A model generated the notes under the pieces. That model was not told the origin of the DNA, did not search any database, and was given only the letters and a program-made list of their open reading frames with translations. Below, in pieces: positions 8,048-63,137 of a stretch of DNA of 64,000 nucleotides. The DNA is from an uncultured Acidobacteriota bacterium (lineage in GTDB: Bacteria; Acidobacteriota; Thermoanaerobaculia; Multivoradales; JAGPDF01): NCBI GenBank assembly GCA_963781755.1, contig CAWAGZ010000008.1, forward strand, positions 16,153 through 80,152, written 5' to 3'. A program made the position numbers and the translations under genes. How positions within the stretch are numbered: position 1 is the stretch's first letter; each line of letters begins with the position of its first letter.

Positions 8048-9042
8048 CAGCTCGTCGTTCCCTGACGCTTCTCCAGCCGGTTGAGCATCAGCTTCGAGAG
8101 GCTGATCACGATGCAGGTGATGACGAACAGAATCAGACCGAGCTCGATGAGCGAGGACGTGTAGAGATCGCCCACCGCCTCGGTGAACTCGTTGGCGAGG
8201 TTGGAGGAGATCGTGTTGCCCGGCATGAACAGCGAGGCATGCAAGTGGTGCGCGTTACCGATGACGAAGGTCACCGCCATCGTCTCGCCCATCGCGCGCC
8301 CGAGGCCGAGCATGATGCCGCCGGCCACGCCGACCTTGGCGTAGGGCAGGACGACGTTCCAGTTCACCTCCCAGGTCGTCGCGCCGAGGGCGTAGCTCGA
8401 CTCCTTGAGCACGCCGGGGACGGTGAGGAAGACGTCGCGCATGACCGACGAGATGAACGGGATGACCATGATGGCCAGGATCAGGCCGGCGGTGAAGATG
8501 CCGATACCCATCGGTGGACCCTGGAAGAGCGCTCCGACCACGGGCCAGTTGCCGAGGTGCGAGGTCATCCAGGGCTGGACGTGGTCGGCGAGGTAGGGAG
8601 CGAGCACGAACAGTCCCCACATGCCGTAGATGATGCTCGGGATCGCCGCCAGCAGCTCGACCGCGGTCGACAGCGGCCGGCGCAGCCACCGCGGACAGAG
8701 CTCGGTGATGAACAGCGCGATGCCGAAGGAGAGCGGGACGCCGATCAGCATCGCGATCAGCGACGTGACCAGGGTGCCGTAGATCGTCACTCCGGCGCCG
8801 AACTCCTCGGTCACGGGGTTCCAGCGCACGCTGGTCAGGAAGCCGGTCCCGAACCTGCGAATCGCCGGCAGGCTGCCCTCGAAGAGGGTGACCAGAACGG
8901 CGAACAGCACGCTCAGGACGAGCAGGGCGAAGAACAGCGTCGTGCCGCGGAACAGGCGGTCGCCCAAGCGGGCGGCGCGCGCGTTGCCGCCGGCGGAGAG
9001 GTCCGCCGCGGGCGGGTCGGTCTGGGCGATGGGCGGGGTCAC
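8047..9042 (-). CDS. pstC: phosphate ABC transporter permease PstC
   Basis: PstC-type permease (…[12 protein letters not shown]…), upstream of pstA in the operon. Confidence 0.95.
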
Positions 9043-9122
9043 GAGGTCAATGGGGGCAGCCCCCGCGGACGGGAGCTGCCCCTCCGGTTGGAAGCGTGAG
9101 CTCGGGCTCGAGGGCTACGGGC

Positions 9123-10175
9123 TCAGCGCCCGGTCCAGACGGCCTTGCCTCCGCTCTTGATCTCGTTGTGCCAGGCATCTTCGACCAGCTGGACCACCGA
9201 GTCGGGCATCGGCACGTAGTCCAGCGAGTTGGCCATGTCGTCGCCGTTCTTGTAGGCCCAGTCGAAGAATTTTAGCACCTCGCGCGCGGTGTCCGCGTTG
9301 GCCTGATCCTTGTAGAAGAGGATGAACGTGGCGCCGGTGATCGGCCAGCTGTCCTTGCCGGGCTGGTCGGTGAGCAGGAGGTGGAAGCCGGGGGCCTTCG
9401 CCCAGTCGGCGTTGGCCGCGGCGGCCTGGAAGCTCTCGGCCGAGGGCGCCACGAAATTGCCCTCGCTGTTCTTCATCAGGACGAAGGCGAGCTTGTTCTG
9501 CAGGGCGTAGGCGTACTCGACATAGCCGATGGCGCCGTTGATCCGGCCGGTGAACGCGGCGACGCCCTCGTTGCCCTTGCCGCCCACTCCGGTCGGCCAC
9601 TCGACCGAGGTGTTCTCGCCGACCTTCTCCTGCCAGGTCGGGCTGACCTGCGACAGGTAGTGGGTGAAGATGAACGAGGTGCCCGAGCCGTCGGAACGGT
9701 GGACGACCGAAATCGCCTGGTCGGGCAGGTTCACGCCGGGATTGAGCGCCTTGAGAGCGGGGTCGTTCCACTTCGTGATCTTGCCGAGGTAGACGTCGGC
9801 GAGGGTGGGCCCGTCGAGCCGGATCTGCCCGGCGGCGATGCCCTCGATGTGGACCACCGGGACGACGCCGCCCATCACGGTCGGGAACTGCATCAGGCCG
9901 CTCGCGTCGAGGTCCTTGACCTCCAACGGCATGTCGGATGCGCCGAAGTCGACGGTCTTGGCCTGGATCTGCTTGATGCCGCCGCCCGAGCCGATCGACT
10001 GGTAGTTCATGCCGACGCCGGTCTTCGCCCTGTAGGCCTCGGCCCACTTGGCGTAGATCGGGTAGGGGAAGGTGGCTCCGGCGCCGGACAGGTCGGTCGC
10101 CGCGAGCGGGGCCGCGGCGACGGTCGCGGCCGCGAGCAGGGTGAGTCCGAGAATCAGGGAGCTCCTGCGGTGCAT
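9123..10175 (-). CDS. pstS: phosphate-binding protein PstS (periplasmic SBP) with signal peptide
   Basis: ORF-track frame 9123..10292. Start set at Met of MHRRSSLILGLTLLAAATVAAAPLAA (signal peptide) at 10175, preceded by GGAGGAG-type RBS. PstS motifs ATFPYPIYAKWA, SGGGI. Confidence 0.9.
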   Translation of the reverse strand: MHRRSSLILGLTLLAAATVAAAPLAATDLSGAGATFPYPIYAKWAEAYRAKTGVGMNYQSIGSGGGIKQIQAKTVDFGASDMPLEVKDLDASGLMQFPTVMGGVVPVVHIEGIAAGQIRLDGPTLADVYLGKITKWNDPALKALNPGVNLPDQAISVVHRSDGSGTSFIFTHYLSQVSPTWQEKVGENTSVEWPTGVGGKGNEGVAAFTGRINGAIGYVEYAYALQNKLAFVLMKNSEGNFVAPSAESFQAAAANADWAKAPGFHLLLTDQPGKDSWPITGATFILFYKDQANADTAREVLKFFDWAYKNGDDMANSLDYVPMPDSVVQLVEDAWHNEIKSGGKAVWTGR

Positions 10176-10242
10176 GCGCTTTCTCCTCCTTTTGGGGTTG
10201 CTCGGGATCGGTACCTTGCGCGGAGAACTATCTCGTGCCGTT

Positions 10243-10258
10243 GTCACACCCGTGTGAC
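10243..10258. promoter_or_regulatory. perfect palindrome GTCACAC-GG-GTGTGAC ~70-85 bp upstream of pstS start; candidate operator
   Basis: Seen directly between the phoU terminator and the pstS start. Half-site TGTCAC resembles Pho-box half sites, but the arrangement is inverted, not direct. Confidence 0.4.
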
Positions 10259-10381
10259 CGAGCGCAGAAGATCGGGCGACCGGAGGGCGCAATTCCGGCG
10301 GGGTCCGGCGGCGCGGCGGGAAACTGGCGCGAGCCGCCGGCCGGCGGGTCCCCGACGCAGGCTCCCGCGGCGCGCGGCAAA

Positions 10382-10397
10382 CCCGCCTTCGGGCGGG
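10382..10397 (-). terminator. hairpin CCCGCC-TTCG-GGCGGG immediately downstream of the phoU stop; candidate intrinsic terminator
   Basis: 6-bp GC stem with tetraloop; on the minus strand followed by TTTG. Confidence 0.5.
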
Positions 10398-11078
10398 TCA
10401 GTTGGTCGTCTTGGAGGGCTCTGGGCGCGCGCTGTGGCGGATGTCGCGTCCCTCGACGAAGAAGATCACGTCTTCGGCGATGTTGGTGGCGTGATCGGCG
10501 ATCCGCTCGTAGTTGCGGGCGATCAGGAGCAGGTGGAGCGCCCGGGTGGTGGTCCGGGGGTCTTCGACCATGAAGCTCAACAGCTCGCGGAAGAGCTGCT
10601 TGTAGAGACCGTCGACGTCGTCGTCGCGGCGGCAGACGTCGATCGCGGCCCGCGCGTCCCGGCGGACGAAGCTGTCGAGGGCGTCGCGCACCATTCCCTG
10701 GGTGATCTCGGCCAGCCGCGGCAGGTCGATGTAGGGCTTGAGCGGCGGCTCGCGGTTGAGGACCGTCGCGGCCTGGGCGACGTTGACCGCCGAGTCCCCC
10801 ATGCGCTCGAGGTCGGTCGCGATCTTCATCGTCGAGACCAGGAAGCGCAGGTCGACGGCGGCCGGCTGCTGGGTCGCGAGCATCCGTGCGCACAGGCCGT
10901 CGATCTCCTTCTGCAGCTCGTCGACCTCGTCGTCGGTGCGGAGGACCGCCTCGATCCGGTCGGCGTCGCGCTCGACCAACGCCTGCATCGCCTCCCTGGT
11001 CATGCGCTCGACCAGTCCCCCCATGCGCAGCAGGGTCTGCCGGATCTTGTCGAGCTCCTGGTCCTGATGTCGTTCCAT
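10398..11078 (-). CDS. phoU: phosphate signalling/transport regulator PhoU
   Basis: 226 aa, two PhoU repeats (…ATDLERMGD…, …ARNYERIADHATNIAE…). Confidence 0.95.
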   Translation of the reverse strand: MERHQDQELDKIRQTLLRMGGLVERMTREAMQALVERDADRIEAVLRTDDEVDELQKEIDGLCARMLATQQPAAVDLRFLVSTMKIATDLERMGDSAVNVAQAATVLNREPPLKPYIDLPRLAEITQGMVRDALDSFVRRDARAAIDVCRRDDDVDGLYKQLFRELLSFMVEDPRTTTRALHLLLIARNYERIADHATNIAEDVIFFVEGRDIRHSARPEPSKTTN

Positions 11079-11130
11079 GGCGGGTTCTCATGATAGCGCC
11101 GAATCCGGAAGCGGAGCTCGGCGGGGTGGG

Positions 11131-11164
11131 GAAAAATGCGGGGGAGGCCCCGAGGCGAGGGGCC
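11131..11164 (-). terminator. candidate intrinsic terminator downstream of the porin gene (GGCCCC-loop-GGGGCC stem followed by T5 on minus strand)
   Basis: Seen directly ~70 nt downstream of the porin stop. Confidence 0.45.
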
Positions 11165-11232
11165 CCCCCCGACCGAGGGAGGGCGTCGGTGCGGCGACGG
11201 GCGGACCGCCGCCGCACCGGCGAGCCCGAGGA

Positions 11233-12294
11233 TCAGAAGTTGTAGACGAACCAGGCGCCGACCTCGCTGTACTTGCCCTTGGCGCCGGCGACCGTCGAGC
11301 CGACCGAGCCGTTGCTCGTCCCGGTCACGCCGCCCTTGCCTTCGGCGTACTTGTAGGCGAGCGAGGCGGCGAGCACCTTGTTGAACTTCTTCTGGATTCC
11401 GAGGTTGTAGTAGGTCAGCTCGCGGTCGGGAGCCAAGGTCTTGCTCGGCTTGGCGTCGTCGTAGCGCAGGAAGATCGTCAGGTCCTGGGCGGGGTCGAAA
11501 TGCGCCCAGATCGAGTAGCCGTCGGCCTTGTCGGTGGTATCCGTGTCCACGTTCTTCCAGTTCTTGGCCTCGAACCACTCGCCGCCGATGCCGAAGCGGT
11601 CGTTCTTCCAGTTGATCAGGGCGTTGGTGCGCTCGGCGGTGTGCTTGGCCGGCGAGGCGTCGGTGTCCTTGCCGAGCTTGCCCGAGTACCCGCCGACGGC
11701 GAGAGTCAGACCCTGGACCGGGGTGATGGCCAGCCGGCCCTCGAAGTCCATGCTCTTGGTGCGGTCGGGATTGCTGTAGCCCTTGCCGTTGACGGCGCTG
11801 ACCTGGTACGACACGACGCCGCTCTTGCCGAGCAGGTGGATGCCCCAGTCCGCGGAGGTCCCGAAGCCCAACGAATCGGTGGTGGTGTTCTCCAGGTAGC
11901 GCATGCCGTACATGCCTTCGGCGAACGGAATCCAGGCCATGTCGGCGGAGCCCAAACGCACCGTGAAGGCGTCGGAGAACTTGCCCTGCAGGAAGGCCTT
12001 CTTGACGAAGACGTCGTAGCGCTTGGTGCCGTGATCGCCGATGTCCGACTGGAACTGCGCCGACCAGGTGTCGTCGATCTTGTGGGTGACGGTGAAATAG
12101 AACCGCTTGACGTCCACCCCGATTCCGCTGTCGGAGCTCTTGGTGCCGGTGCCGTCGTCCTTGTTCTCCTTGCTGGAGAAGTCGGTGTAGAGACGGCCCT
12201 GGATCGTGGTCGATGACGACTGGGCATGGGCCGCGACCGTCCCGGCCACCAGGGCCAGGGCCGTGAGGCCGGCGACGACGTGGGTCTTGCGCAT
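11233..12294 (-). CDS. phosphate-selective porin O/P family (OprO/OprP-like) outer-membrane beta-barrel
   Basis: ORF-track frame 11233..12417. Start set at Met of MRKTHVVAGLTALALVAGTVAAHA (signal peptide) at 12294 with upstream GGAGGAGG RBS. Alternating amphipathic composition, C-terminal aromatic (…VYNF). Sits in the Pho context. Confidence 0.8.
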   Translation of the reverse strand: MRKTHVVAGLTALALVAGTVAAHAQSSSTTIQGRLYTDFSSKENKDDGTGTKSSDSGIGVDVKRFYFTVTHKIDDTWSAQFQSDIGDHGTKRYDVFVKKAFLQGKFSDAFTVRLGSADMAWIPFAEGMYGMRYLENTTTDSLGFGTSADWGIHLLGKSGVVSYQVSAVNGKGYSNPDRTKSMDFEGRLAITPVQGLTLAVGGYSGKLGKDTDASPAKHTAERTNALINWKNDRFGIGGEWFEAKNWKNVDTDTTDKADGYSIWAHFDPAQDLTIFLRYDDAKPSKTLAPDRELTYYNLGIQKKFNKVLAASLAYKYAEGKGGVTGTSNGSVGSTVAGAKGKYSEVGAWFVYNF

Positions 12295-12540
12295 GACTCT
12301 CCTCCTCCGATGTGAGGTCGAAATCCGGGGGTTCGCGTCGGCCGCCGCCGTCGGGCGCGCGGCCGTCGTCGGATCGGGAGAGACACTAGGCCGGACGCGC
12401 GATCGGCGCGGCGACACCCGAGTGACAGGCCTGCGACACGCGGACGCGCCGCCTCTCCGCTCGCCGGGTCCGGAGACCCGGCGGAAGGCTTGGTGCGGGA
12501 GTCAGCCCCTGGCGGTGGACGCCGCGCCGTTGTCGTCGCT

Positions 12541-12805
12541 GACAAGACTTTCTGATGAAGGGAAAGACCTGCGGGAAGATCGCTTCGGGTCCGGAGCCGG
12601 CGGCCGGAGCCCGCGCTCCTCCCTGGAAAGACCTTCTGTTGAAGGGAAAGGAACCCGGGATCGTTGCCTCGGAGCCCGCGGCGGGGCCAGTGCCCGAGGC
12701 CTTCCGCTCCTGGAGAACAGCGATCGGACCTGGCTTCGCGGCCTGCGGTGCCGGCCCCGGTTCCTAGCCGTTCCGATCGATGGAAGCTTCTACTTCGTCT
12801 CTTCT
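12541..12805. repeat. cluster of partial copies of the TGAAGGGAAAG(G)ACC / GGAAGCTTCT intergenic repeat family (copies at ~12553-12569, ~12636-12654, ~12775-12800)
   Basis: Seen directly in the 557-bp gap between the phoR-like 3' end and the porin 5' end. Confidence 0.5.
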
Positions 12806-12851: not shown

Positions 12852-14621
12852 TCAGCCGCGGGTCATGGGCAGCAGGACGCGGAAGGTGGAGCCGGTGCCG
12901 GGCTCGCTCTCGACCTCGACTCTCCCCTGGTGGGCCTGGGCGACGTGCTTGACGATCGCCAGCCCGAGGCCGGTGCCGCCCTCCTCGCGCGCCCGCCCCT
13001 TGTCCACCCGGTAGAAGCGCTCGAAGATGCGCGCGACGTGCGAGGCCGAGATGCCGATGCCGGTGTCCACCACCTCGAGCGCGGCCTGGCCCTCCCGCTC
13101 GGCGAGCCGCACCTCGACGCCGCCCCCCGGCCGGTTGTACTTGATGGCGTTGTCGAGCAGGTTGGCGAGGAGCCGCAGGAGCCCGTCCGCGTCGCCCTCG
13201 ACCACCAGCGGGGGGCCGTCCTGGACGCGGACCGTGACCGAGCGGGTTGCCGCGGCGGCGGCGACCATCTCGACCGCCTCGGCGACGATCTCGCGCAGGT
13301 CGACCCGCTCGACGGCCCGGAAGGGCTCCGTCCCCTCCAGTCGCGAGAGGGTGAGCAGGTCGTCGAGCAGGTCGCCCAGCCGGCGGCACTGATCCAGGAT
13401 TCGGGTGCTGAAGCGCAGCGCGGTGTCGCGCTCGTCCACGGCGCCGTCGACCAGAGTCTCGGCGTAGCCGCGGATCGCGGCCAGGGGCGTCTTGAGCTCG
13501 TGCGAGACGTTGGCGACGAAGTCCTTGCGCGTCCTCGACAGCCGCTCGGCCTCGGTGACGTCTCGCGCCACTACGACCAGCCCCTCACCGGCGGCCAACG
13601 AGGAGGAGAGCAGCGTCAGGCTGCGCGGCTCGGGCTCGAGCAACTCGAGCTCGGTCGCGCCGCCGCTCCCGGACTGGAGCGAAGCCGCGATGAGGTCGGT
13701 CAGCCGGGGTTGCCGGACCAGCTCGAGGACGGTCGCGGCGCCGGCGTCGGCGGGCAGGCCGAACAGATCACGAAACGCCGGGTTGACGATCTTCACCCGG
13801 CCCTGCCGGTCGGTGACCAGGACGCCCTCGTTCATGCTCGCCATGGTCGAGCGCAGGTGGTCCCGTTCGGCCTCGACTGCCGCGATCTGCCGCTCGGCGC
13901 GCGTGGCGATGCGCTCGAGCGCCCGCCCCAGGGTCGCCAGCTCGCTCTCGTCCGGGATCTCGGGACGGGCCGAGTAATCGCCCTCGCCGAGGCGGTGCGC
14001 CGTCGCGATGAGCTCCGAGAGCGGCTGGAAGAGGGAGCGCGTCAGCCACCAGGACAACGCCAGGGTGAGCACGGCGGCGACCGCGGCGGAGAGCAGCAGC
14101 ACCCCCCAGAGCCGCCGGCGCAGCGCGCCGAGCGAGCGCAGCGGCAGACCCAGGCGGACGACCGCGGCGCGGCCATCGTCCCGGCGCACGACGCGCGCGG
14201 CGTAGGCGGTCTCGAGGCCCGTCGTCTTGCTCGTGCGGACCGACCGTCCTTCGCCCGATTCGAGCGCCGCGACGACCTCCGGCCGGGTGCGGTGGTTGTC
14301 CATCACGCCGACCTGTTGCGGGGTCCGGTCGCTGTCGGCGACCACGCCGCCGTCGAGCTCGATGACCGTGATGCGGTAGGGGGTCTCGTCGGCGAGCGCG
14401 GTGATCCGCTCCTGGATCGCGGCGTCGGGACGGTCCCCGCCGGGACCGGGCAGCGGAACCGAGGGGGCGACGATCCGCAGCGCGGCCTGGAGCGACTCGG
14501 CTTCGCCGTGGGCGAGGGTCCCTGGCAGCAGGGCGATCGCCAGACCCGCGACCAAGACCAGCGCAGCCGCCGCCGGGATGAGCGGGGCGAGCCGCAGCTT
14601 GGGGGAATAGGGGATCGACAT
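12852..14621 (-). CDS. phoR: PhoR-like sensor histidine kinase: signal/TM, periplasmic domain, HAMP, PAS, HisKA, HATPase
   Basis: ORF-track frame 12852..14774. Start set at Met of MSIPYSPKLRLAPLIPAAAALVLVAGLAIALL at 14621. HisKA H-box VANVSHELKTPL; G-boxes DTGIGI, GGTGLGLAIV. Confidence 0.85.
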   Translation of the reverse strand: MSIPYSPKLRLAPLIPAAAALVLVAGLAIALLPGTLAHGEAESLQAALRIVAPSVPLPGPGGDRPDAAIQERITALADETPYRITVIELDGGVVADSDRTPQQVGVMDNHRTRPEVVAALESGEGRSVRTSKTTGLETAYAARVVRRDDGRAAVVRLGLPLRSLGALRRRLWGVLLLSAAVAAVLTLALSWWLTRSLFQPLSELIATAHRLGEGDYSARPEIPDESELATLGRALERIATRAERQIAAVEAERDHLRSTMASMNEGVLVTDRQGRVKIVNPAFRDLFGLPADAGAATVLELVRQPRLTDLIAASLQSGSGGATELELLEPEPRSLTLLSSSLAAGEGLVVVARDVTEAERLSRTRKDFVANVSHELKTPLAAIRGYAETLVDGAVDERDTALRFSTRILDQCRRLGDLLDDLLTLSRLEGTEPFRAVERVDLREIVAEAVEMVAAAAATRSVTVRVQDGPPLVVEGDADGLLRLLANLLDNAIKYNRPGGGVEVRLAEREGQAALEVVDTGIGISASHVARIFERFYRVDKGRAREEGGTGLGLAIVKHVAQAHQGRVEVESEPGTGSTFRVLLPMTRG

Positions 14622-14699
14622 CGGGGCGGGCGGCGCAGTGTAGCAGCGCCGCGACGGGGCTCCGCGCGGGCTCCGGGCATTCTCCGCAGCGGGTGCGGA

Positions 14700-14790
14700 A
14701 AAGCTTGTCGAAAACCGGTTCCGGAAGCCGCCGGCGCGCGCTCGGCGTGGGTCCCGCGCGCGTTCTGCACCCATTCTTGTGCAGGCGACG
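14700..14790 (-). promoter_or_regulatory. conserved promoter block upstream of phoR: TGCGGAAAAG ... GGGTCCCG ... GCGTTcTGCACcCATTCTTGTGCA (palindrome TGCACC-N6-TGTGCA at ~14766-14783)
   Basis: Near-identical block (24/26 in the core) upstream of the phoB-like gene at 30485-30570. Confidence 0.55.
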
Positions 14791-14950
14791 TAAGCCCCGT
14801 GATGTCAGAGGTTCCGGCCTGGAGATCGCGCCGGTCGTGGACCGGCGCGGGGGCGCTGCTGTGGGGTTTTCCGCAGGGGGCCGCGGCAGGCACCGGATCG
14901 GCGTCGGTTAACTCTCTGCGACAGAGCGACTTGGGCGGGTGGGACCGGGC

Positions 14951-16582
14951 TCAGCGCGGGCGTCGCCGCGAGCGCTCGAGGCCGGGCCGGTACTCGATCC
15001 GGCGGCCGAACACCTTCTCGAACAGGTCCGAGCGGTGGCGCGCCGCGTCCAGCTCGAGCGTGACCTGGTAGGGGGAGAGCACCTCCACCACCACCCGCCG
15101 GCGCCGGGCCAGCGAAGCGTAGAGCTCGACCACGCGCGCGGCGTGCGTCCGGTCGAGCGCGTTGGCGATGCGCAGCAGCGCGCCGAGCGCGAGCACCACC
15201 TGGCGCTGCCAGGGCTCGAGCGCGGCGAAGTCCTCGTGCCGCCCCTTGGGCAGGGCGCCGCGGTGATAGCGGGCCACGTTGGCGACGACCTCGATCTCGC
15301 GCGGATCGAAGGCGTCGAGCTCGGCGCTCGAGATCAGGTAGAGAGAGTGCTTGTGATGGCGTTGGAAGTGGATCGAGTAGCCGACGTCGTGGAGCAGCGC
15401 GGCGTACTCGAGCCACTCGCGCTCGCGGGAGCCGAGGTTGTGAACGGGAGCGGTCAGGTCGAACAGCCTCACCGCGAGCTTCGCCACCTGGCGGGCGTGC
15501 CCGGCGATCGAAGGCGCCCGCTGCGCCAGCTCGGAGACCTGGCGACGACGGACGTTGGCCGGCGTCGCACCGTCGCCCGCGGGGGCGCCCAGGGCTTCGA
15601 GCAGCAGACCCTCGCGCAAGGCCCGGTCGCACAGGTGGAGCCGTTCGACTCCGGCGTGGCGGGCGAGCTCCTCGAGCAGGATCGCGCCAGCCAGGATCGA
15701 ACCGGCGCGCCGGGGACCGACCGCCGGCAGCGCCGCGATCTGGCGGCGCCGGAGCGCGCGCAGCCGCTCCACGACCTCGCCCAGCTCGCGCAGCCGGAGC
15801 TCGCGCAGGCCGCCTGCGGCCAGCCGGCGGTCCCGCCCCGCGAAATGGTCGGCCAGGTCGCCGCAGCACATCGCGGTCCCCGAGGTCGCGATCAGTCGCT
15901 CGACCCGCGCCGGCGCCCGCAGCGAAGAGATCGTCGCCCGGAGCTTGCGGCGCAGACGGTCGATCGAGGCGGTCGCCGGCGGGTCGCCGTCGAGAGCGCC
16001 GGCGCAGCGCAACGACCCCAGGCGAAGGCTGCGCACCGCGCGCAGCTTGCCGGCGCGCGCGGTGCACCACTCGGTCGAGCCGCCGCCGACGTCGACCAGC
16101 ACCGACCAGCCCCTCCCCAGGTCGACCGCGTGCCGCACGGCGCGGAAGACCAGCGCGCCCTCTTCGTTGCCGGTCAGCTTGCGCACCTCGACCCCGGTCA
16201 GGGCGCGGACCTGGTCGAGGAACTCGGAGCCGTTCGACGCCTCCCGGACGGCGCTCGTCGCGACCGCTTCGATCCGGAGGGCGCCCTTGAGCCGGGCCAG
16301 CGTGGTCATCCGCAGCAGCGCCTCGAGGCCGTCGCGCACGGCGCGTTGGGAGAGCGATCCGTGCGCCAGCGCGCTCTTGCCCAGCCGCACCATCTCGCGC
16401 TCGCGGGCGAGGACGCGATAGGCGCCGGCGCCGTCCCCCTCGGCGACGATCATGTGGATCGAGTTGGACCCGATGTCGATCGCCGCCACCCGCTCGCCGT
16501 CGGTCGCGGCGGCCGGAACGGCAGGCGCGGCGCTCCGGGTCGCCCCGGACCCCGACACGGTGCGGGCAGCGCGCTCTCTCAT
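14951..16582 (-). CDS. ppx: exopolyphosphatase / guanosine pentaphosphate phosphohydrolase (Ppx/GppA) with C-terminal HD domain
   Basis: N-terminal VAAIDIGSNSIHMIV, Ppx-GppA fold; HD-like LLHDVGYSIHFQRHHKH. Confidence 0.9.
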   Translation of the reverse strand: MRERAARTVSGSGATRSAAPAVPAAATDGERVAAIDIGSNSIHMIVAEGDGAGAYRVLAREREMVRLGKSALAHGSLSQRAVRDGLEALLRMTTLARLKGALRIEAVATSAVREASNGSEFLDQVRALTGVEVRKLTGNEEGALVFRAVRHAVDLGRGWSVLVDVGGGSTEWCTARAGKLRAVRSLRLGSLRCAGALDGDPPATASIDRLRRKLRATISSLRAPARVERLIATSGTAMCCGDLADHFAGRDRRLAAGGLRELRLRELGEVVERLRALRRRQIAALPAVGPRRAGSILAGAILLEELARHAGVERLHLCDRALREGLLLEALGAPAGDGATPANVRRRQVSELAQRAPSIAGHARQVAKLAVRLFDLTAPVHNLGSREREWLEYAALLHDVGYSIHFQRHHKHSLYLISSAELDAFDPREIEVVANVARYHRGALPKGRHEDFAALEPWQRQVVLALGALLRIANALDRTHAARVVELYASLARRRRVVVEVLSPYQVTLELDAARHRSDLFEKVFGRRIEYRPGLERSRRRPR

Positions 16583-18293: not shown

Positions 18294-18468
18294 GGCTCGA
18301 ATGGCTCGGATCGGTCGGTTCGGAAGGTCGAAGACGGCGCGGGGAAACTAGCATCCCCGTCACACCTCCGTCACACCCCCCGAGGTGGGCCCCGGCGCGA
18401 GGGTGGGGCGCCGCCTGGTCGCGCCCTCGCAGCCCCGCTGCTGGCCCGGCTTGCATAGACTCTGCGAA

Positions 18469-24743: not shown

Positions 24744-25981
24744 ACCCGCGCGTCCTCTTCCTCTCCGACGTCTACTTCCCGCGCGTCAACGGCGTCTCGA
24801 CGTCGATCGGTGTCTTCCGCCGCGAGCTGGCGGCCCACGGCGTCGAGGTCGAGCTGATCGCGCCGGCCTACGGCCGTACCGCCGGTGATGGAGAGGAGGC
24901 GGGGATCACGCGGGTGCCGGGGCGGAGCTTGCCGTTCGACCCCGAGGACCGGCTGGTCGCGGCGCGGCGCATGACCCGGGCGGCCGCGGCCCTGGAGTTC
25001 GACCTGGTCCACGTCCAGACCCCTTTCGCGGCCCACCGCGCGGGAGTCCACCTGGCCCGGCTCCGGCGGGTGCCGTTGGTCGAGACCTGGCACACCGACT
25101 TCGAGCACTACTTCGAGCACTACGTGCGCTGGGTCCCGGCGCCGCTCGCCCGCGCGCTGGCGCGGACCCTGGCGCGCCGCGTCGCCCGGCGGGTGGACCT
25201 GCTCGTCGTGCCCTCGGCGGCGATCGACCGCGCCCTGGCCGCGATCGGCGTCGCGACCCCGCGCGCCGTGATCCCGACCGGGCTCGCTCCGGGCGAGCTC
25301 GGCGCGGGGGACGGCGCGCGCTTCCGCGCCGCCCACGGCATCCCGGCCGACCGCAAGGTGGCGGTCCACGTCGGCCGCGTCGCGCGCGAGAAGAACATCG
25401 GCTTCCTGCTCGAGGCCGCAGACCGGGCGCGCCGCGAGATCCCCGACCTCTTGCTGGTCGTCGCCGGCGAGGGACCGGCGCGCAGCGAGCTCGAGCGGCG
25501 CGCCCGGGAGCTCGGGCTGGGATCGAACGTCTTGTTCGTCGGTTACCTCGGTCGTTGCGGCGAGCTCGCCGACTGCTATTGCGCCGGCGACTGCTTCGTC
25601 TTCGCCTCGCGGACCGAGACCCAGGGCCTCGTGCTGCTCGAGGCGATGTCGCTCGGGGTACCGGTCGTGGCGCTCGCCGAGCAGGGGACGGTGGACCTGC
25701 TCGTGGCGCGGCGCGGCGCCCTGGTGCCGGCAGCGGAGCCCGGCGACTTCGCCGCCGCGATCGTCCGCCTGCTGCGTGACCCCGCGCTCGCCTCCCGCCT
25801 CGGGCGCGAGGGACGCGAGGTCGCGGCGGAGTGGTCGGCGCCGGCGCTCGCCGGCCGTCTGGCGGCCCGCTACCGGGAGCTGCTCCCGGCACCGCTAGGG
25901 GCCGGAGAGGGTGTGGTGGGCGCGCCGGGCGCCGCGGTGGCAGGCGAGCTCCGTCACGTCGCCGTCACCGCCCGGGACTAG
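24740..25981 (+). CDS. GT4 (group 1) glycosyltransferase
   Basis: GTG start at ~24740 overlapping the PAP2 stop (GTGA). VNPRVLFLSDVYFPRVNGV N-terminal GT-B fold; EX7E-like FASRTETQGLVLLEAMSLGVPVVA. The long ORF-track N-terminal extension (from 24149) overlaps PAP2 and is rejected. Confidence 0.85.
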   Translation: MNPRVLFLSDVYFPRVNGVSTSIGVFRRELAAHGVEVELIAPAYGRTAGDGEEAGITRVPGRSLPFDPEDRLVAARRMTRAAAALEFDLVHVQTPFAAHRAGVHLARLRRVPLVETWHTDFEHYFEHYVRWVPAPLARALARTLARRVARRVDLLVVPSAAIDRALAAIGVATPRAVIPTGLAPGELGAGDGARFRAAHGIPADRKVAVHVGRVAREKNIGFLLEAADRARREIPDLLLVVAGEGPARSELERRARELGLGSNVLFVGYLGRCGELADCYCAGDCFVFASRTETQGLVLLEAMSLGVPVVALAEQGTVDLLVARRGALVPAAEPGDFAAAIVRLLRDPALASRLGREGREVAAEWSAPALAGRLAARYRELLPAPLGAGEGVVGAPGAAVAGELRHVAVTARD

Positions 25982-25993
25982 ACTCCGGAGGCG

Positions 25994-28207
25994 ATGACGT
26001 CCGAGACGACGGCCCTCGGGGGCCCGGCCGGGGAAGTTGGAGCATCCGCCCGCGAGCCCGGCGGCGCCGCGGCGGACGGTGGTCCGGGGGCCGGCGCGGA
26101 ATCGCCGTTCTTCGACCGCGAGCTGTCCTGGCTCGAGTTCAACCGGCGCGTGCTCCACCAGGCCGAGGACGACTCCCTGCCGCTGCTCGAGCGGCTGAAG
26201 TTCGTCGCCATCTTCGGCGGCAACCTCGACGAGTTCTTCATGAAGCGGGTGGGGGGCCTCAAGCTGCAGCTGCTGTCCGGCCGTTCGACCCGGTCGCCGG
26301 AGGGCCGCACCCCGGCCGAGCAGCTCGACGCTGTCGCCGCGGCGGTGCGGCCGCTGGCCGACCGCGCCCGGGAGGTGCTGGTCGGCGACCTGCTCCCCCT
26401 GCTGCGGCAGCGGGGCGTCGAGCTGGTGAGCTGGCGCGAGCTGGGACCCGAGGAGCGTCGCTGGGCGCGCGATTACTTTCTGCGCACGGTCTTCCCCATC
26501 CTGACGCCTCTCGGTCTCGACACCTCGCACCCCTTCCCGTTCATCTCCAACCTGTCGCTGTCGCTGGCGGTCGCGATCCGCAGCCCGGCGTCGAGCGAGG
26601 TGCGGTTCGCGCGCGTCAAGGTCCCGCCGTCGCTGCCGCGCTGGGTCCAGCTGCCGGAGGGCAACCGGTTCCTGGCGCTCGAGGACCTCATCGCGCAGCA
26701 TCTGGAGAAGCTCTTCCCCGGTCTCGAGCTGCTCGAGACCTACGCCTTCCGGGTCACCCGGGCGGCCGACGTCGAGCGTCACGAGGAGCCGGCCGAGGAC
26801 CTGCTCGAGTCGATCCAGGAGGAGCTGCGCGAGCGCCGCTTCGCCGCGGTGGTGCGGCTGGAGGTGGTGCCCGAGATGCCGGCGTGGATGCGCGCCCTGC
26901 TCGCCGACGAGCTCGAGATCGAGGCCACCGATCTCTACGAGACCCGGCCGCCCCTGGCCGCCCGAGACCTGTTCCAGCTCGCCGCGTTGCCCGTGCCGGG
27001 TCTCGTCGAGCCGCCCTGGCAGTCGGTGACGCACCCGCGCCTGGCGCCGGGCGCCGACGGGCGCGAGCCCGACCTGTTCCGCGTCCTGCGCGGAGGGGAT
27101 CTCCTGGTCCACCATCCCTACGACTCGTTCACGAACTCCGTCCAGAGGTTCCTCCAGGTGGCGGCAGAGGACCCGGCGGTACTCGCCATCAAGCAGACCC
27201 TGTACCGGACCTCGCGCAGCTCGCCCGTGGTGCGGGCGCTGATCGAGGCGGCCGAGCGCGGCAAGCAGGTGGCCGTGCTCGTCGAGCTGCGGGCGAGCTT
27301 CGACGAGGCGCGCAACATCGAGTGGGCCGAGGCGCTGGAGCAGGCGGGAGCTCACGTGGCCTACGGCGTGGTCGGGTACAAGACGCACGCCAAGGTCTCG
27401 CTCGTGGTGCGTCAGGAGAGCGACGGACTGCGCGCCTACAGCCACTTGGCGACCGGCAACTACAACACCGACACGGCGGAGCTCTACACCGACATCGGGC
27501 TGTTCACCTGCGATCCGGAGATCGGCGACGACAACGCCCAGCTGTTCAATCTCCTGACCTCCGGCCACCTCGCGGACCAGAGCTTCTCGAAGATGCTGGT
27601 CGCGCCGGTCAACATGCGCCGCGGGATCCTCGAGCGCATCCAGCGCGAGATCGAGCACGTCCGGGCCGGCAGGGGCGGACGCATCCAGGCCAAGATGAAC
27701 GCCCTGGAGGACGCGGAGATCGTCCTCGCGCTCTACGACGCGTCGGCCGCCGGAGTCGAGATCGACCTGCTGGTGCGCGGCGTCTGCCGGCTGCGCCCTG
27801 GGCTGGCCGGGCGGAGCGAGAACGTCCGGGTGATCTCGATCGTGGGCCGCTTCCTCGAGCACGCGCGGATCACCTGCTTCGGCAACGGCGGCGAGCCCGA
27901 GTACTTCATCGGATCGGCGGACTGGATGTCGCGCAACCTCGATCGCCGGGTCGAGGCGATGGTTCCCGTCAACGCGCCGCCGCTGCGCCGCGAGCTGCAG
28001 GAGATCCTCGACCTCCAGCTGGCCGACAACCGCAACGCCTGGGAGCTCGGGCCGGACGGCTCCTGGCGGCGCAAGCTCCCGGCTCCGGGCGAGCCCGAGT
28101 GCGCCAGCCAGCGAGTCCTGATGGAGCGGTCGCGCGCCCGCGTCGCCCGCGTCGAACGCTTCCCGGCCCCTGGCGACGAAACGCCCGGCGGGTCGCCCGT
28201 GCGCTAG
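25994..28207 (+). CDS. ppk: polyphosphate kinase 1
   Basis: 737 aa; N-domain FFDRELSWLEFNRRVL, PLD-like HKD motifs (GYKTHAKVSLVV, …), full PPK1 architecture. Confidence 0.95.
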   Translation: MTSETTALGGPAGEVGASAREPGGAAADGGPGAGAESPFFDRELSWLEFNRRVLHQAEDDSLPLLERLKFVAIFGGNLDEFFMKRVGGLKLQLLSGRSTRSPEGRTPAEQLDAVAAAVRPLADRAREVLVGDLLPLLRQRGVELVSWRELGPEERRWARDYFLRTVFPILTPLGLDTSHPFPFISNLSLSLAVAIRSPASSEVRFARVKVPPSLPRWVQLPEGNRFLALEDLIAQHLEKLFPGLELLETYAFRVTRAADVERHEEPAEDLLESIQEELRERRFAAVVRLEVVPEMPAWMRALLADELEIEATDLYETRPPLAARDLFQLAALPVPGLVEPPWQSVTHPRLAPGADGREPDLFRVLRGGDLLVHHPYDSFTNSVQRFLQVAAEDPAVLAIKQTLYRTSRSSPVVRALIEAAERGKQVAVLVELRASFDEARNIEWAEALEQAGAHVAYGVVGYKTHAKVSLVVRQESDGLRAYSHLATGNYNTDTAELYTDIGLFTCDPEIGDDNAQLFNLLTSGHLADQSFSKMLVAPVNMRRGILERIQREIEHVRAGRGGRIQAKMNALEDAEIVLALYDASAAGVEIDLLVRGVCRLRPGLAGRSENVRVISIVGRFLEHARITCFGNGGEPEYFIGSADWMSRNLDRRVEAMVPVNAPPLRRELQEILDLQLADNRNAWELGPDGSWRRKLPAPGEPECASQRVLMERSRARVARVERFPAPGDETPGGSPVR

Positions 28208-29760: not shown

Positions 29761-30441
29761 TCAGGCGCGCAGGCGGTAGCCGACGCCGATCACGGTCTCG
29801 ATCCGGTCGGCTTCGGCGCCGAGCTTGCGGCGCAGCCGGCGCACGTGGGTGTCCACCGTCCGACTGTCGACGTCCTCGGCGTATCCCCACACGTCCGAGA
29901 GCAGCCGCGAGCGGGTCTGGACGCGTCCCTGCCGTTCGAGCAGGACCTTGAGCAGGCGGAACTCGGTCGCCGTCAGGGTGACCTCCTTGCCCCGCGCCTC
30001 GACCCGGTGCGCCGATGCGTCGAGCCGGAGGCCACCCGCCTCGATCACGTCGCCGGCGTCCTCTCCGGCGTGACGGCGCAGGACCGCCTTGATCCGGAGC
30101 ACGACTTCGCGTGGGCTGAACGGCTTCGGGATGTAGTCGTCGGCGCCCAGTTCGAGTCCCACGATGCGGTCGACCTCCTCGCCCTTGGCGGTGAGCATGA
30201 CCAGGGGGACCCGGGCGGTCGCCGGGTCGCGCTTGAGCAGGCGGGTGAGCTCGAGACCGTCCAGGCCCGGGAGCATCAGATCGAGCACGATGAGGTCGGG
30301 CGGCTGGCGCCGGATGGCCTCCAGGGCGCCGTCGCCGCGACGCAGGACCTCGACCCCGAAGCCCGCCTTCTCGAGGTTGAACTGCAGCACTTCGGCGATG
30401 TCGGGCTCGTCCTCGACGACGTAGATCCGCTGTTCGGCCAT
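29761..30441 (-). CDS. phoB: OmpR/PhoB-family two-component response regulator (PhoB-like)
   Basis: REC domain (VVEDEPDI…DLIVLDLMLPGLDG…K) plus winged-helix trans_reg_C (…RTVDTHVRRLRRKL…GVGYRL); 226 aa. Confidence 0.85.
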   Translation of the reverse strand: MAEQRIYVVEDEPDIAEVLQFNLEKAGFGVEVLRRGDGALEAIRRQPPDLIVLDLMLPGLDGLELTRLLKRDPATARVPLVMLTAKGEEVDRIVGLELGADDYIPKPFSPREVVLRIKAVLRRHAGEDAGDVIEAGGLRLDASAHRVEARGKEVTLTATEFRLLKVLLERQGRVQTRSRLLSDVWGYAEDVDSRTVDTHVRRLRRKLGAEADRIETVIGVGYRLRA

Positions 30442-30484
30442 GCGCAGCGGACGCTAGCACGGGCCTTCCGCAGGCCATGCGGAA

Positions 30485-30570
30485 ATGTCTGCGGAAAAGG
30501 ATCCTCCACCGGGGTCCCGGTGCCCGTCTCGGCGGGCTTTGGAGCGTTTTGCACACATTCTTGTGCATCG
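30485..30570 (-). promoter_or_regulatory. conserved promoter block upstream of the phoB-like operon: TGCGGAAAAG ... GGGGTCCCGG ... GCGTTtTGCACaCATTCTTGTGCA (palindrome TGCACA-N6-TGTGCA at ~30550-30567)
   Basis: Same block as upstream of phoR (14700-14790); ~110 bp upstream of the phoB-like start. Confidence 0.55.
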
Positions 30571-30778
30571 AAGGCAACTCCATGGTGCTCAACGCGTTAC
30601 GCTCAAGTCCGTGGACCGATTGAAGAAAGCGCTGCGCAACCGGGCACCACTTTTCCACAGCGACCGGTGACGGGCCGGTAACGGCGGCCGTAAATCTTTG
30701 CAACGCTTCGTCTTGACAGCCCGAGCGGGCGGCGGTTACCGTCCCGTCAGTGGTCCCCGGACCGGCGGAGGCTGGAGC

Positions 30779-31096
30779 ATGACGATGACGACGCTCGCGA
30801 CGATCCGCTCGTATCTGATCTTCACCGGCACCGGTCCGATCCTCGTGCTGTCGACCTATCCCGAGCTGCGCGACCCGCGGCTGCTCGCCAAGCTCCAGTA
30901 CAAGGGCATCTCGAAGTTCATCGCCTACGAGGTCGCGCTCGACGCGGTCAAGAACCGCTACGAGCACGCCTACGGCAACATCGCGCACGATCTCGACGAG
31001 GTCGAGGACATCCGCGTGCTCGACTTCAACGGCCACCAGATCATGGCCAACTTCTCGCTCGACGAGCTCGGCGACCCGATCAAGTTCGGCGGCTGA
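30779..31096 (+). CDS. hypothetical small protein (105 aa), no recognised domain
   Basis: ATG at ~30779 preceded by GGAGG; N-terminal hydrophobic stretch; ORF-track frame 30698..31096. Confidence 0.4.
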   Translation: MTMTTLATIRSYLIFTGTGPILVLSTYPELRDPRLLAKLQYKGISKFIAYEVALDAVKNRYEHAYGNIAHDLDEVEDIRVLDFNGHQIMANFSLDELGDPIKFGG

Positions 31097-43182: not shown

Positions 43183-43686
43183 ATGAGCTCCACCGATCGA
43201 AATCGTTGGCTGTTCGCCGGGGCGGCGATGACCGTCGCGCTCGCGGCCTGGTTCGCGCTGTCGCCGCTGAGGGCCGCGGAGTCGCAGGCCGTCCCGGCCG
43301 CGGGGACGGCGACCACGGCGTCGCCGGCACCGGAGTCCGGCGAGGCCGGTTGCTGCTGCTGTCGTCACCGGGCGGCGGAGGGGAAGGCCGCCGACTGCCC
43401 GCGTCACGGCGAGGGGAAGGCGATGGATTGCCCGCGTCAGGGCGAGGGGAAGGGGATGGACTGCCCGCGCCACGGCGCAGAGAAGGGCATGGACTGCCCG
43501 CGGCACGACGCAAAGGGTGAGGCCGGTGCGGGGATGCACCACCGCCACCACGCCGCGCAGGCGGCGAAGGCCGACGGAGGTTGCTGCCGCTGTGCGGGGC
43601 ACGGCGGCGAAGGCTGCGATCGCAAGGGCGGCGCGGACACCGGCGGGAAGCCGGCGGCACCCGCTCCGCCGGCCGCGCCGAACTGA
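43183..43686 (+). CDS. secreted Cys/His/Met-rich tandem-repeat protein (putative metal-binding)
   Basis: ATG ~43183 after GGGAGAGAGA. Signal/TM MSSTDRNRWLFAGAAMTVALAAWFALSPLRA. CCCC, then 4 x 11-aa repeats (A/M)DCPR(H/Q)G(E/A)xKGM, then HHRHH and GGCCRCAGHGGEGCDRKG. 12 Cys, >10 His in ~130 mature residues. Confidence 0.6.
   Translation: MSSTDRNRWLFAGAAMTVALAAWFALSPLRAAESQAVPAAGTATTASPAPESGEAGCCCCRHRAAEGKAADCPRHGEGKAMDCPRQGEGKGMDCPRHGAEKGMDCPRHDAKGEAGAGMHHRHHAAQAAKADGGCCRCAGHGGEGCDRKGGADTGGKPAAPAPPAAPN
43393..43521 (+). repeat. 4 x 33-bp perfect-to-near-perfect tandem direct repeats (gactgcccgcgtcacggcgaggggaaggcgatg …) inside the Cys/His-rich CDS
   Basis: Seen directly; in-frame, no spacers (not CRISPR). 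Confidence 0.85.
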
Positions 43687-62943: not shown

Positions 62944-63024
62944 GGTTTTCTTTCTCCTTTCGGTTCGTATCGTCGGGCGCTCCCCGAATGGGGCCAACGC
63001 CTTTCATGCTCTTTTAACGCTTAG

Positions 63025-63076
63025 ATTTTCGCACACATTTCAGGCGGTGTCAAATTTCTTAGTAGAAGTCGCTAAG
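63025..63076 (-). promoter_or_regulatory. candidate sigma70-type promoter for hsp20 (-35 TTGACA at 63053..63048, 17-bp spacer, -10 GAAAAT at 63030..63025) with adjacent inverted repeat CTTAG-N9-CTAAG (63058-63076). Lies in the AT-richer divergent region shared with the downstream kinase gene.
   Basis: Seen directly on the minus strand; region is conspicuously AT-rich for this genome. Confidence 0.4.
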
Positions 63077-63137
63077 ATCATTTAAGTACAGCGTTTGGAA
63101 TGGTTTGTGCTTCCAGGACCGCCGGGAGAGTGGTATC

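Follow-up and report, generated by a model that had tools for sequence, protein, structure and literature searches.

The closest described counterparts of the DNA element analysed here are the Pho-box autoregulated phoBR promoters, such as those of E. coli and, with multiple boxes, V. cholerae. Regulators of the OmpR/PhoB family bind direct repeats, with rare atypical exceptions (PMC3960148), and in E. coli the phoB promoter has both a Pho box that activates and an antisense PhoB site that serves auto-repression (PMC6194859). The two upstream regions described below resemble these promoters in lying upstream of Pho two-component genes, in having a canonical Pho box (tandem YGTYRC units with an 11-bp period) at the upstream edge, in a core that has no -35 element and in having extra sites, which are likewise known for E. 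coli phoB (PMC6194859). They differ in that the Pho box lies ~200 bp from the start instead of 10 bp from the -10, that rigidly spaced non-Pho boxes and a palindrome stand between Pho box and start, and that phoB and phoR are unlinked in our sequence, each with its own copy of the arrangement.

Repressor and activator complexes in which an architectural protein sits at the apex of a DNA loop (GalR-HU, NagC-CAP and AraC) and CRP/FNR-type operators, which are 5-N6-5 inverted repeats typically centred at -41.5 or -61.5, offer further points of comparison. So does the NtrC enhancer, whose UAS consensus is TGCACCAnnnTGGTGCA, a 17-bp palindrome of the form TGCACC-N5-GGTGCA with half-sites 11 bp apart (PMC8743547). 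In a literature search, no paper turned up that deals with Pho boxes or PhoB of Acidobacteriota or Thermoanaerobaculia. To our knowledge, little has been established about transcriptional control in Acidobacteriota at all.

Results

The phoR and phoB loci

The window (the whole stretch of 64,000 bp that was analysed; 72% G+C, 28% A+T) encodes a PhoR-like histidine kinase and, from a locus ~15 kb away, a PhoB-like response regulator (Table 1). The best NCBIfam matches of the kinase are PnpS and phoR_proteo, and that of the regulator is TIGR02154 PhoB; homologues of the regulator are 76-100% identical to it, and the few with a named source are labelled Thermoanaerobaculia or Acidobacteriota. The neighbours of phoR, all on the minus strand, are PhoU_div, pit, ppx (14951-16582), a gene read as a porin, phoU and pstSCAB. 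A ~26-bp direct repeat (TCTTTCCCTTCAWCAGAARGTCTT; ~12543-12651, minus strand) is also present twice in the long stretch between phoR and the porin gene, on the upstream side of the porin Pho boxes. Elsewhere, a 33-bp unit (GAGGGGAAGG...TGCCCGCG.CA.GGC; 43378-43509) is repeated in tandem three to four times shortly before a Ser/Thr protein kinase gene (43790-45898), and the array may encode an 11-residue peptide repeat. phoB is accompanied by genes for a SixA-like phosphatase and a CHAD protein, and ppk converges on this group. Across the clade the gene order is variable, as seen in a comparison with L040, L041, L125 and L126, and several relatives have an ECF sigma/anti-sigma pair between ppk and PhoU_div that is absent in the window.

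phoB is divergent from an orphan gene for a 105-residue protein (30779-31096, plus strand), which has its own promoter, TTGACA-18-TACCGT (30713-30742). The protein is 72-99% identical across many Thermoanaerobaculia and Holophagales and belongs to no Pfam or NCBIfam family. AlphaFold yields a confident model (pLDDT 85) of alpha/beta type, for which we found no significant PDB fold match and none to a DNA-binding protein. maf always adjoins the gene, and a Holophagales genome links it to maf rather than to phoB. On these grounds we rejected it as a regulator of the upstream module described next. The other regulators encoded in the window, a cNMP-binding/TPR protein and an Ada-like protein, were rejected as well because neither keeps synteny with the module. 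In the loci compared, the module is not accompanied by any regulator gene.

Anatomy of a duplicated upstream module

The first-pass annotation had described a block of ~100 bp, shared by the phoR-like and phoB-like genes and containing a palindrome. Such a block is indeed there: TGCACNCATTCTTGTGCA has exactly two matches in the 64-kb window (14766 and 30550), a number that does not change with 3 mismatches allowed and compares with a chance expectation of 0.04. In a MAFFT alignment the two upstream regions run gap-free over ~200 bp at an offset of 15,784 bp, which is common to CTGYGGAAAA, the palindrome and TCCGCAG-N4-TGCGGAAA. The block is therefore longer than first described, with a third box that aligns at the same offset without gaps. 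As claimed, the distance from palindrome to start codon is 145 bp at phoR and 109 bp at phoB, counted from where each palindrome starts. The core identity, given as 24/26, is 22/24 for GCGTTYTGCACMCATTCTTGTGCA and 23/26 with flanks. The pairing proposed for TGCGGAAAAG was 12 bp off register, 14694 pairing with 30478 and not with 30490, and GGGTCCCG, also listed as a shared element, is 20 bp off register and not kept in relatives, so we take it as chance.

Read in gene orientation, each copy runs from E1 and E2 across 93-94 bp to E3, across a further 68 bp to E4a/E4b/E4c, and on to a -10 hexamer and the start codon (Table 1). Four copies of one box, WTTTCCRCAG, make up most of the named elements: E2 (consensus CTGYGGAAA) is distal, and the proximal cluster has E4a (TTTTCSRCAG) and E4b (TTTCCRCA, beginning 12 bp past E4a) as direct copies and E4c (YTGYGGAR, beginning 25 bp past E4a) inverted. 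E2 and E4a are inverted copies 162 bp apart, and E4b and E4c, also inverted relative to each other, lie close together. The palindrome E3 has the consensus TGCAC-N8-GTGCA followed by RAACGCT. The E2-E3 spacer is AT-enriched in its 3' half, where it shows a CAA-N4-TTG pattern, and the E3-E4 spacer is very GC-rich. Against an expectation of 16.7, the window has just 9 matches to the box YTGYGGAR, and the two modules hold 5 of them.

Table 1. Genes and module elements in the window (positions are those of the 64,000-bp stretch).
Feature	Position	Strand	Description
phoR-like histidine kinase gene	12852-14621	-	Pfam HAMP, PAS, HisKA, HATPase_c
phoB-like response regulator gene	29761-30441	-	Pfam Response_reg, Trans_reg_C
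394-aa gene, read as porin	11233-12417	-	no family match
E1, phoR copy	14907-14924	-	CTGTCGC-N4-AGTTAAC, Pho-box-like, just past the ppx stop codon
E2, phoR copy	14867-14876	-	CTGCGGAAAA; plus strand TTTTCCGCAG
AT-enriched tract upstream of E3, phoR copy	14791-14832		conserved A/T positions
E3, phoR copy	14760-14783		palindrome TGCACCCATTCTTGTGCA (14766-14783) with conserved flank; gene orientation TGCACAAGAATGGGTGCAGAACGC
E4 cluster, phoR copy	14680-14714	-	E4a TTTTCGACAA (14705-14714), E4b TTTTCCGCA (14694-14702)
E4c, phoR copy, inverted	14680-14689	-	CTGCGGAGAA
Putative -10, phoR copy	14637-14642	-	TACACT, preceded by TGC; placed from conserved hexamers
E1', phoB copy	30667-30683	-	canonical Pho box CGTTAC-CGGC-CCGTCAC, ends 6 nt before E2
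E2, phoB copy	30651-30660	-	CTGTGGAAAA
AT-enriched tract upstream of E3, phoB copy	30575-30616		contains TAACGCGTTG
E3, phoB copy	30544-30567		palindrome TGCACACATTCTTGTGCA, TGCACA-N6-TGTGCA (30550-30567), with flank
E4 cluster, phoB copy	30465-30498	-	E4a TTTTCCGCAG (30489-30498), E4b TTTCCGCA (30478-30485)
E4c, phoB copy, inverted	30465-30473	-	CTGCGGAAG
Putative -10, phoB copy	30451-30456	-	TAGCGT, preceded by TGC; putative position

The putative -10 of phoR stands 15 nt before the ATG (14619-14621) and 47 bp past the start of E4c, and that of phoB 9 nt before the ATG (30439-30441) and 17 bp past the start of E4c. Over all instances the hexamer is TAnnnT, mostly with an upstream TG, and in most it lies 7-15 nt before the start codon. 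Scans with strict sigma-70 and terminator models found no match in either upstream region. The corresponding regions from hexamer to start are TAGACT at 25976-25996 for ppk, TAGCGT at 30439-30456 for phoB, TATCAT at 11078-11095 for phoU and TACACT at 14619-14642 for phoR. At these four genes the gap between hexamer and start codon is 9-15 nt and we found no Shine-Dalgarno sequence, which together suggests leaderless or near-leaderless mRNAs; pstS and the 105-residue protein gene have GGAGG.

That the block is neither an E. coli-type Pho box nor sigma-54-like, as originally stated, was borne out by motif comparison and promoter scans. For sigma-54 (-24/-12, TGGCAC-N5-TTGCW), 14622-14950 has no coding-strand match with up to 3 mismatches, and the sole match at that threshold in 30442-30778 lacks the GG; we rejected a sigma-54 reading of E3 or of the -10 region because the spacing does not match and a fitting GG/GC pair is missing.

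Conservation of boxes and distances among relatives

phoB loci of relatives were gathered via PhoB homologues of 76-99% identity and phoR loci via a metagenome scan (PhoR identity 56-72%), and the module is present in every phoB and phoR upstream region of the clade loci gathered. Its geometry is rigid: among 16 non-redundant instances (phoB, phoR and phoBR), E2 and E3 are separated by 93-96 bp (93-94 bp in all those at phoR), E3 and E4a by 67-68 bp, and E4a and E4c always by 25 bp. Mean pairwise identity over 13 instances is 0.88 for E2, 0.74 for E3 and 0.73 for E4; for the two spacers it is 0.32 and 0.43, where ~0.30 is expected at 72% G+C. The 64 boxes collected give the consensus WTTTCCRCAG, in which T4 and C5 are invariant, C8 is kept in 63/64 and A9 in 60/64. 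Fixed distances across randomised spacers argue for a nucleoprotein complex that needs helical phasing.

A TAnnnT hexamer is found 16-18 bp from E4c in all 8 non-redundant phoB/phoBR instances, and TACACT or TACGCT is kept 47-49 bp from E4c in 7 phoR instances. The difference between the two, ~31 bp, corresponds to three helical turns, so the module would lie on the same helix face at both genes.

Within E3 the arms are conserved and the spacer is variable. In three lineages the second arm is GGTCA rather than GTGCA (TTGGTCAA in L040, L123 and L126), and E3 could instead be read as two TTGNNCAA-like boxes. The AT fraction from -50 to -9 relative to E3 is 0.5-1.0 in the 13 instances, as against 28% A+T genome-wide, and in relatives the tract carries the CAA-N4-TTG pattern, which resembles an IHF core. 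At the upstream edge, the phoB-type E1' is conserved in all phoB instances and rigidly adjacent to E2. The phoR-type E1 is degenerate, at a distance from E2 that varies between genomes (33-36 bp); it is kept as CTGTCAC-AAGG-AGTTAAC in L040 and L045-L048, and L043 and L123 have an additional Pho-box pair beside it.

The spacers of E3 also bear on the relation between copies. In the lineage of the window (the window and L035) the phoR and phoB copies have almost the same spacer (AAGAATGG and AAGAATGT), and in other genomes the two spacers differ (e.g., AAGAAACA and AAGATCTT in L040). This pattern may point to gene conversion between the paralogous modules, or to co-evolution with a binding protein in individual lineages. 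We also considered a site-specific recombination site with core and arm sites, and rejected it because the E3 spacers differ within most genomes (L040 and L041, for instance), which makes strand exchange between copies unlikely.

The possibility that the motif is a generic repeat was checked by motif scan, which found the two window copies, and with an nhmmer profile of the module, which matched only phoB and phoR sites in 1.27 Mb, a restriction that holds for the window plus ~1.2 Mb of loci. On the strength of that sequence we rejected a dispersed repeat or MITE. The exact 18-mer has 34 matches in 185,579 species genomes (apparently without the source genome), in unrelated contexts and in a number consistent with chance; none of them is beside phoB or phoR.

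Conserved inverted elements at fixed distances could in principle also work at the RNA level, either in a structured 5' leader or in a small RNA made from a Pho-box promoter at E1/E2. Hairpins can be drawn at E3 and E4b/E4c, E2 is complementary to E4a, and the phoB E2 sits where a -10 would be relative to the Pho box. RNAalifold, however, gave -8.6 and -10.5 kcal/mol on the two strands, a weak consensus energy to which only the invariant palindromes contributed, with an unfavourable covariation term; there was no covariation on either strand and no conserved helix in the spacers, and a search of the module against Rfam found no match. The pairing of E2 with E4a has a C-A mismatch in L045-L048, every element is upstream of the conserved TAnnnT hexamer, and a Pho-box-driven start would fall past E2, leaving E2 outside the RNA. 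We regard an RNA-level role as highly improbable.

Pho boxes and the place of PhoB

The first-pass annotation had suggested that the PhoB-like protein itself uses the palindrome as a non-canonical site. The canonical sites are elsewhere. YGTYRC-N4-YYGTYRC has 4 exact matches in the window where 0.6 are expected, all at Pho-related promoters: those of the porin gene (12422), the pit operon (18358), ppk (25952) and phoB (E1, 30667). Relatives keep these boxes, and the distance between box and -10 hexamer does not change among them. The sites at the porin gene, the pit operon and ppk, with one at pstS, define the canonical Pho box of the clade as (C/G)YGTC(A/G)C units with an 11-bp period. Inside the modules (16 modules, 3145 bp) the YGTYRC pair does not occur once. 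Conversely, E3 and the boxes are absent from the promoters of ppk, pit, porin, pstS and phoU, which have GTCAC/GTGAC repeats.

The arrangement of the units varies. Three tandem units precede the porin-read gene (12411-12438, minus strand); two precede ppk (25952-25968, plus strand), 10 nt before its -10 TAGACT; and pstS has one unit and one inverted unit (10243-10258). The latter had been listed as a relative of the phoB/phoR palindrome and is in fact a Pho-box-type GTCAC element, unrelated to E3. A second supposed relative, between hsp20 and a histidine kinase gene, has only a 9-mer in common with E3 and lacks the second arm. That AT-rich divergent region (63010-63080) contains an inverted repeat of its own, CTTAG-N9-CTAAG (within TTTCTTAGTAGAAGTCGCTAAGATC), which may be a heat-shock operator, unrelated to E3. 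At the PhoU_div-pit-ppx operon the units are reversed (GTGAC; 18358-18374, plus strand) at a similar distance from the -10. By analogy with S. meliloti, where repression of orfA-pit has been reported, the reversed units may mediate repression of the low-affinity transporter.

Neither E3, an inverted repeat, nor the WTTTCCRCAG boxes have tandem half-sites with an 11-bp period, and we rejected the possibility that they are Pho boxes. The protein points the same way: the regulator is 48% identical to E. coli PhoB, with a nearly identical recognition helix (RTVDTHVRRLR versus RTVDVHIRRLR). With canonical boxes at the Pho promoters and never inside a module, binding of PhoB to the palindrome seems unlikely.

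A broader version of the idea is that PhoB itself binds the module, with the boxes, E3 or both serving as non-canonical or low-affinity sites for PhoB~P. The two-component genes would then have a mode of autoregulation not shared by the output genes, for example positive feedback coupled to negative. In the sequence examined the module does occur only at the two genes that would need autoregulation, a canonical Pho box abuts the phoB copy, CTGY is common to the box CTGYGGA and the Pho half-site CTGTCAC, and the E. coli phoB promoter itself mixes an activating box with an antisense auto-repression site (PMC6194859). Yet the best-kept positions of the box (TTTCC..CAG) are not Pho-like, and a weak site is unlikely to be kept so strictly. 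E3 is an inverted repeat, whereas the family binds tandem repeats (PMC3960148); the E. coli-like recognition helix fits the GTCAC boxes that are actually there; and boxes and palindrome are missing at the other Pho promoters listed above. Taken together, these points make PhoB an unlikely occupant of the module. Of the original interpretation, the analysis supports a functional, selected cis-regulatory block that gives two unlinked genes the same architecture; it does not support PhoB at the palindrome.

Origin of the two copies

In L126, whose PhoB is 78% identical to that of the window, ppx is followed by the module and by phoB-phoR as one operon (ppx-phoB-phoR, 8161-12566), with the same spacing. 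In the lineage of the window the order is ppx-phoR, and phoB has moved beside maf and the 105-residue protein gene. More distant Acidobacteria have adjacent phoB and phoR, whose promoter lacks the module and carries ordinary Pho boxes close to the start; the clade Pho box lies ~200 bp further from the start codon than in these outgroups. As judged from these sequences, the window copies are paralogues of the ancestral phoB-phoR operon promoter, retained after phoB relocated, since L126 has the module before an intact operon.

Duplication by itself could leave a functionless relic, and the module might equally have begun as an exapted MITE-like insertion bounded by the 10-bp inverted E2 and E4a. 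The paralogy of the two copies, the resemblance of E2 and E4a to terminal inverted repeats 172 bp apart and the displacement of the Pho box by ~200 bp would all suit such a history. Against it, the spacers have decayed to random while boxes and distances are kept in 16 instances, with PhoR identity down to 56%, and there are only two copies per genome region, always at phoB and phoR. We consider a relic extremely improbable. By its pattern of conservation, the module is a real, strongly selected, clade-specific regulatory element.

A model for the module

We favour the view, with a probability of roughly 0.6, that the module is a ~200-bp element acting at the DNA level, the ancestral phoB-phoR promoter duplicated when the operon split, on which one or more factors that do not use PhoB sites assemble a phased, probably looped complex. 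The sequence comparisons show how the module is built, that it is conserved with rigid spacing and differs from Pho boxes, that it is confined to phoB and phoR in the loci examined and that it gives no RNA signal; from them we infer protein binding, looping and the transcription starts, with an effect that may be activation or repression. The module would be the promoter region of the ancestral operon, duplicated when phoB left phoR, with both copies retained by selection. One or two sequence-specific proteins, other than PhoB acting through its normal site, would occupy the boxes and the palindrome and together form the phased complex, probably with a loop between the inverted boxes E2 and E4a and with the bendable tract and E3 near its apex. 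The complex would set transcription from a leaderless-type promoter with an extended -10 and no -35, and PhoB would provide its input through the canonical Pho boxes (E1) directly upstream of the module.

Roughly halfway from E2 to E4 come the AT-rich tract and E3, a placement consistent with a looped or wrapped complex bent at its apex. Measured from the putative starts, the proximal boxes cover about -55 to -20 at phoB, where there is no -35, and about -85 to -50 at phoR; no single, simple geometry of activation or repression suits both genes. By analogy, the module resembles the GalR-HU, NagC-CAP and AraC systems in having operators of the same motif at a fixed, phase-sensitive distance with a second site or bend between them; it differs in having four boxes plus a palindrome, and its promoter at the putative loop edge instead of inside the loop. 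The phoB-type E3 can also be written GCACA-N6-TGTGC, the 5-N6-5 format of CRP/FNR-type operators. Its centre lies about 115 or 145 bp upstream of the putative start, and its arms are unlike those of known CRP/FNR members.

The arms of E3, TGCAC/GTGCA, are the same as the half-sites of the NtrC enhancer (PMC8743547). The position of E3, ~115-145 bp upstream of the putative start, is similar too, and the module has an AT tract with an IHF-core-like pattern. However, GCAC and GTGC are 12 bp apart in 16/16 instances of E3 (an 18-mer), not 11 bp (a 17-mer), the promoter is of the sigma-70 type (TAnnnT) with no -24/-12, and the AT tract is upstream of E3 rather than between E3 and the promoter.

The box itself invites comparison with DnaA assemblies (oriC, datA and DARS), which the module resembles in having several copies of a TTWTNCACA-like 9-mer in both orientations, at fixed spacing and with an IHF-like site. 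It could accordingly be a DnaA-box cluster with an IHF-type bend that ties phoB and phoR to the initiator or titrates DnaA. TCCACA occurs in 30/64 boxes, and 12/64 fit TTWTNCACA exactly, a consensus that may not be the clade's own; TTTTCCACA is an accepted cyanobacterial DnaA box (PMC4674748, Ori-Finder papers), and fixed spacing around an AT-rich tract with CAA-N4-TTG recalls DnaA-IHF assemblies. But core positions 6 and 7 vary, with G at position 7 in 33/64 boxes (A in 30/64) and at position 6 in 5/64. The window lacks dnaA, dnaN and any feature of an origin, known DnaA assemblies contain nothing that corresponds to E3, and the module sits at two regulatory-gene promoters with no replication context. 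We therefore think a DnaA-box cluster very unlikely.

Discussion

The module is a phylogenetically footprinted element with base-pair-exact spacing, present in two paralogous copies per genome, one at each master regulator gene of the phosphate-starvation response. It illustrates from nature how two genes can stay co-regulated after their operon has split, and it is a ready DNA bait for finding the factor that binds it; the analysis also defines the clade's canonical Pho box. Were WTTTCCRCAG to be the DnaA box of this clade, the module would be a DnaA-IHF assembly in front of phoB and phoR, and phosphate and polyphosphate signalling would be coupled to the replication initiator, or the module would be a DnaA-titrating locus. 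On the reading that we prefer, the arrangement suggests that the Pho two-component genes of the clade receive a second input besides PhoB autoregulation, and a dedicated regulator acting through a phased loop, if true, would be an unrecognised second layer of Pho control in Acidobacteriota.
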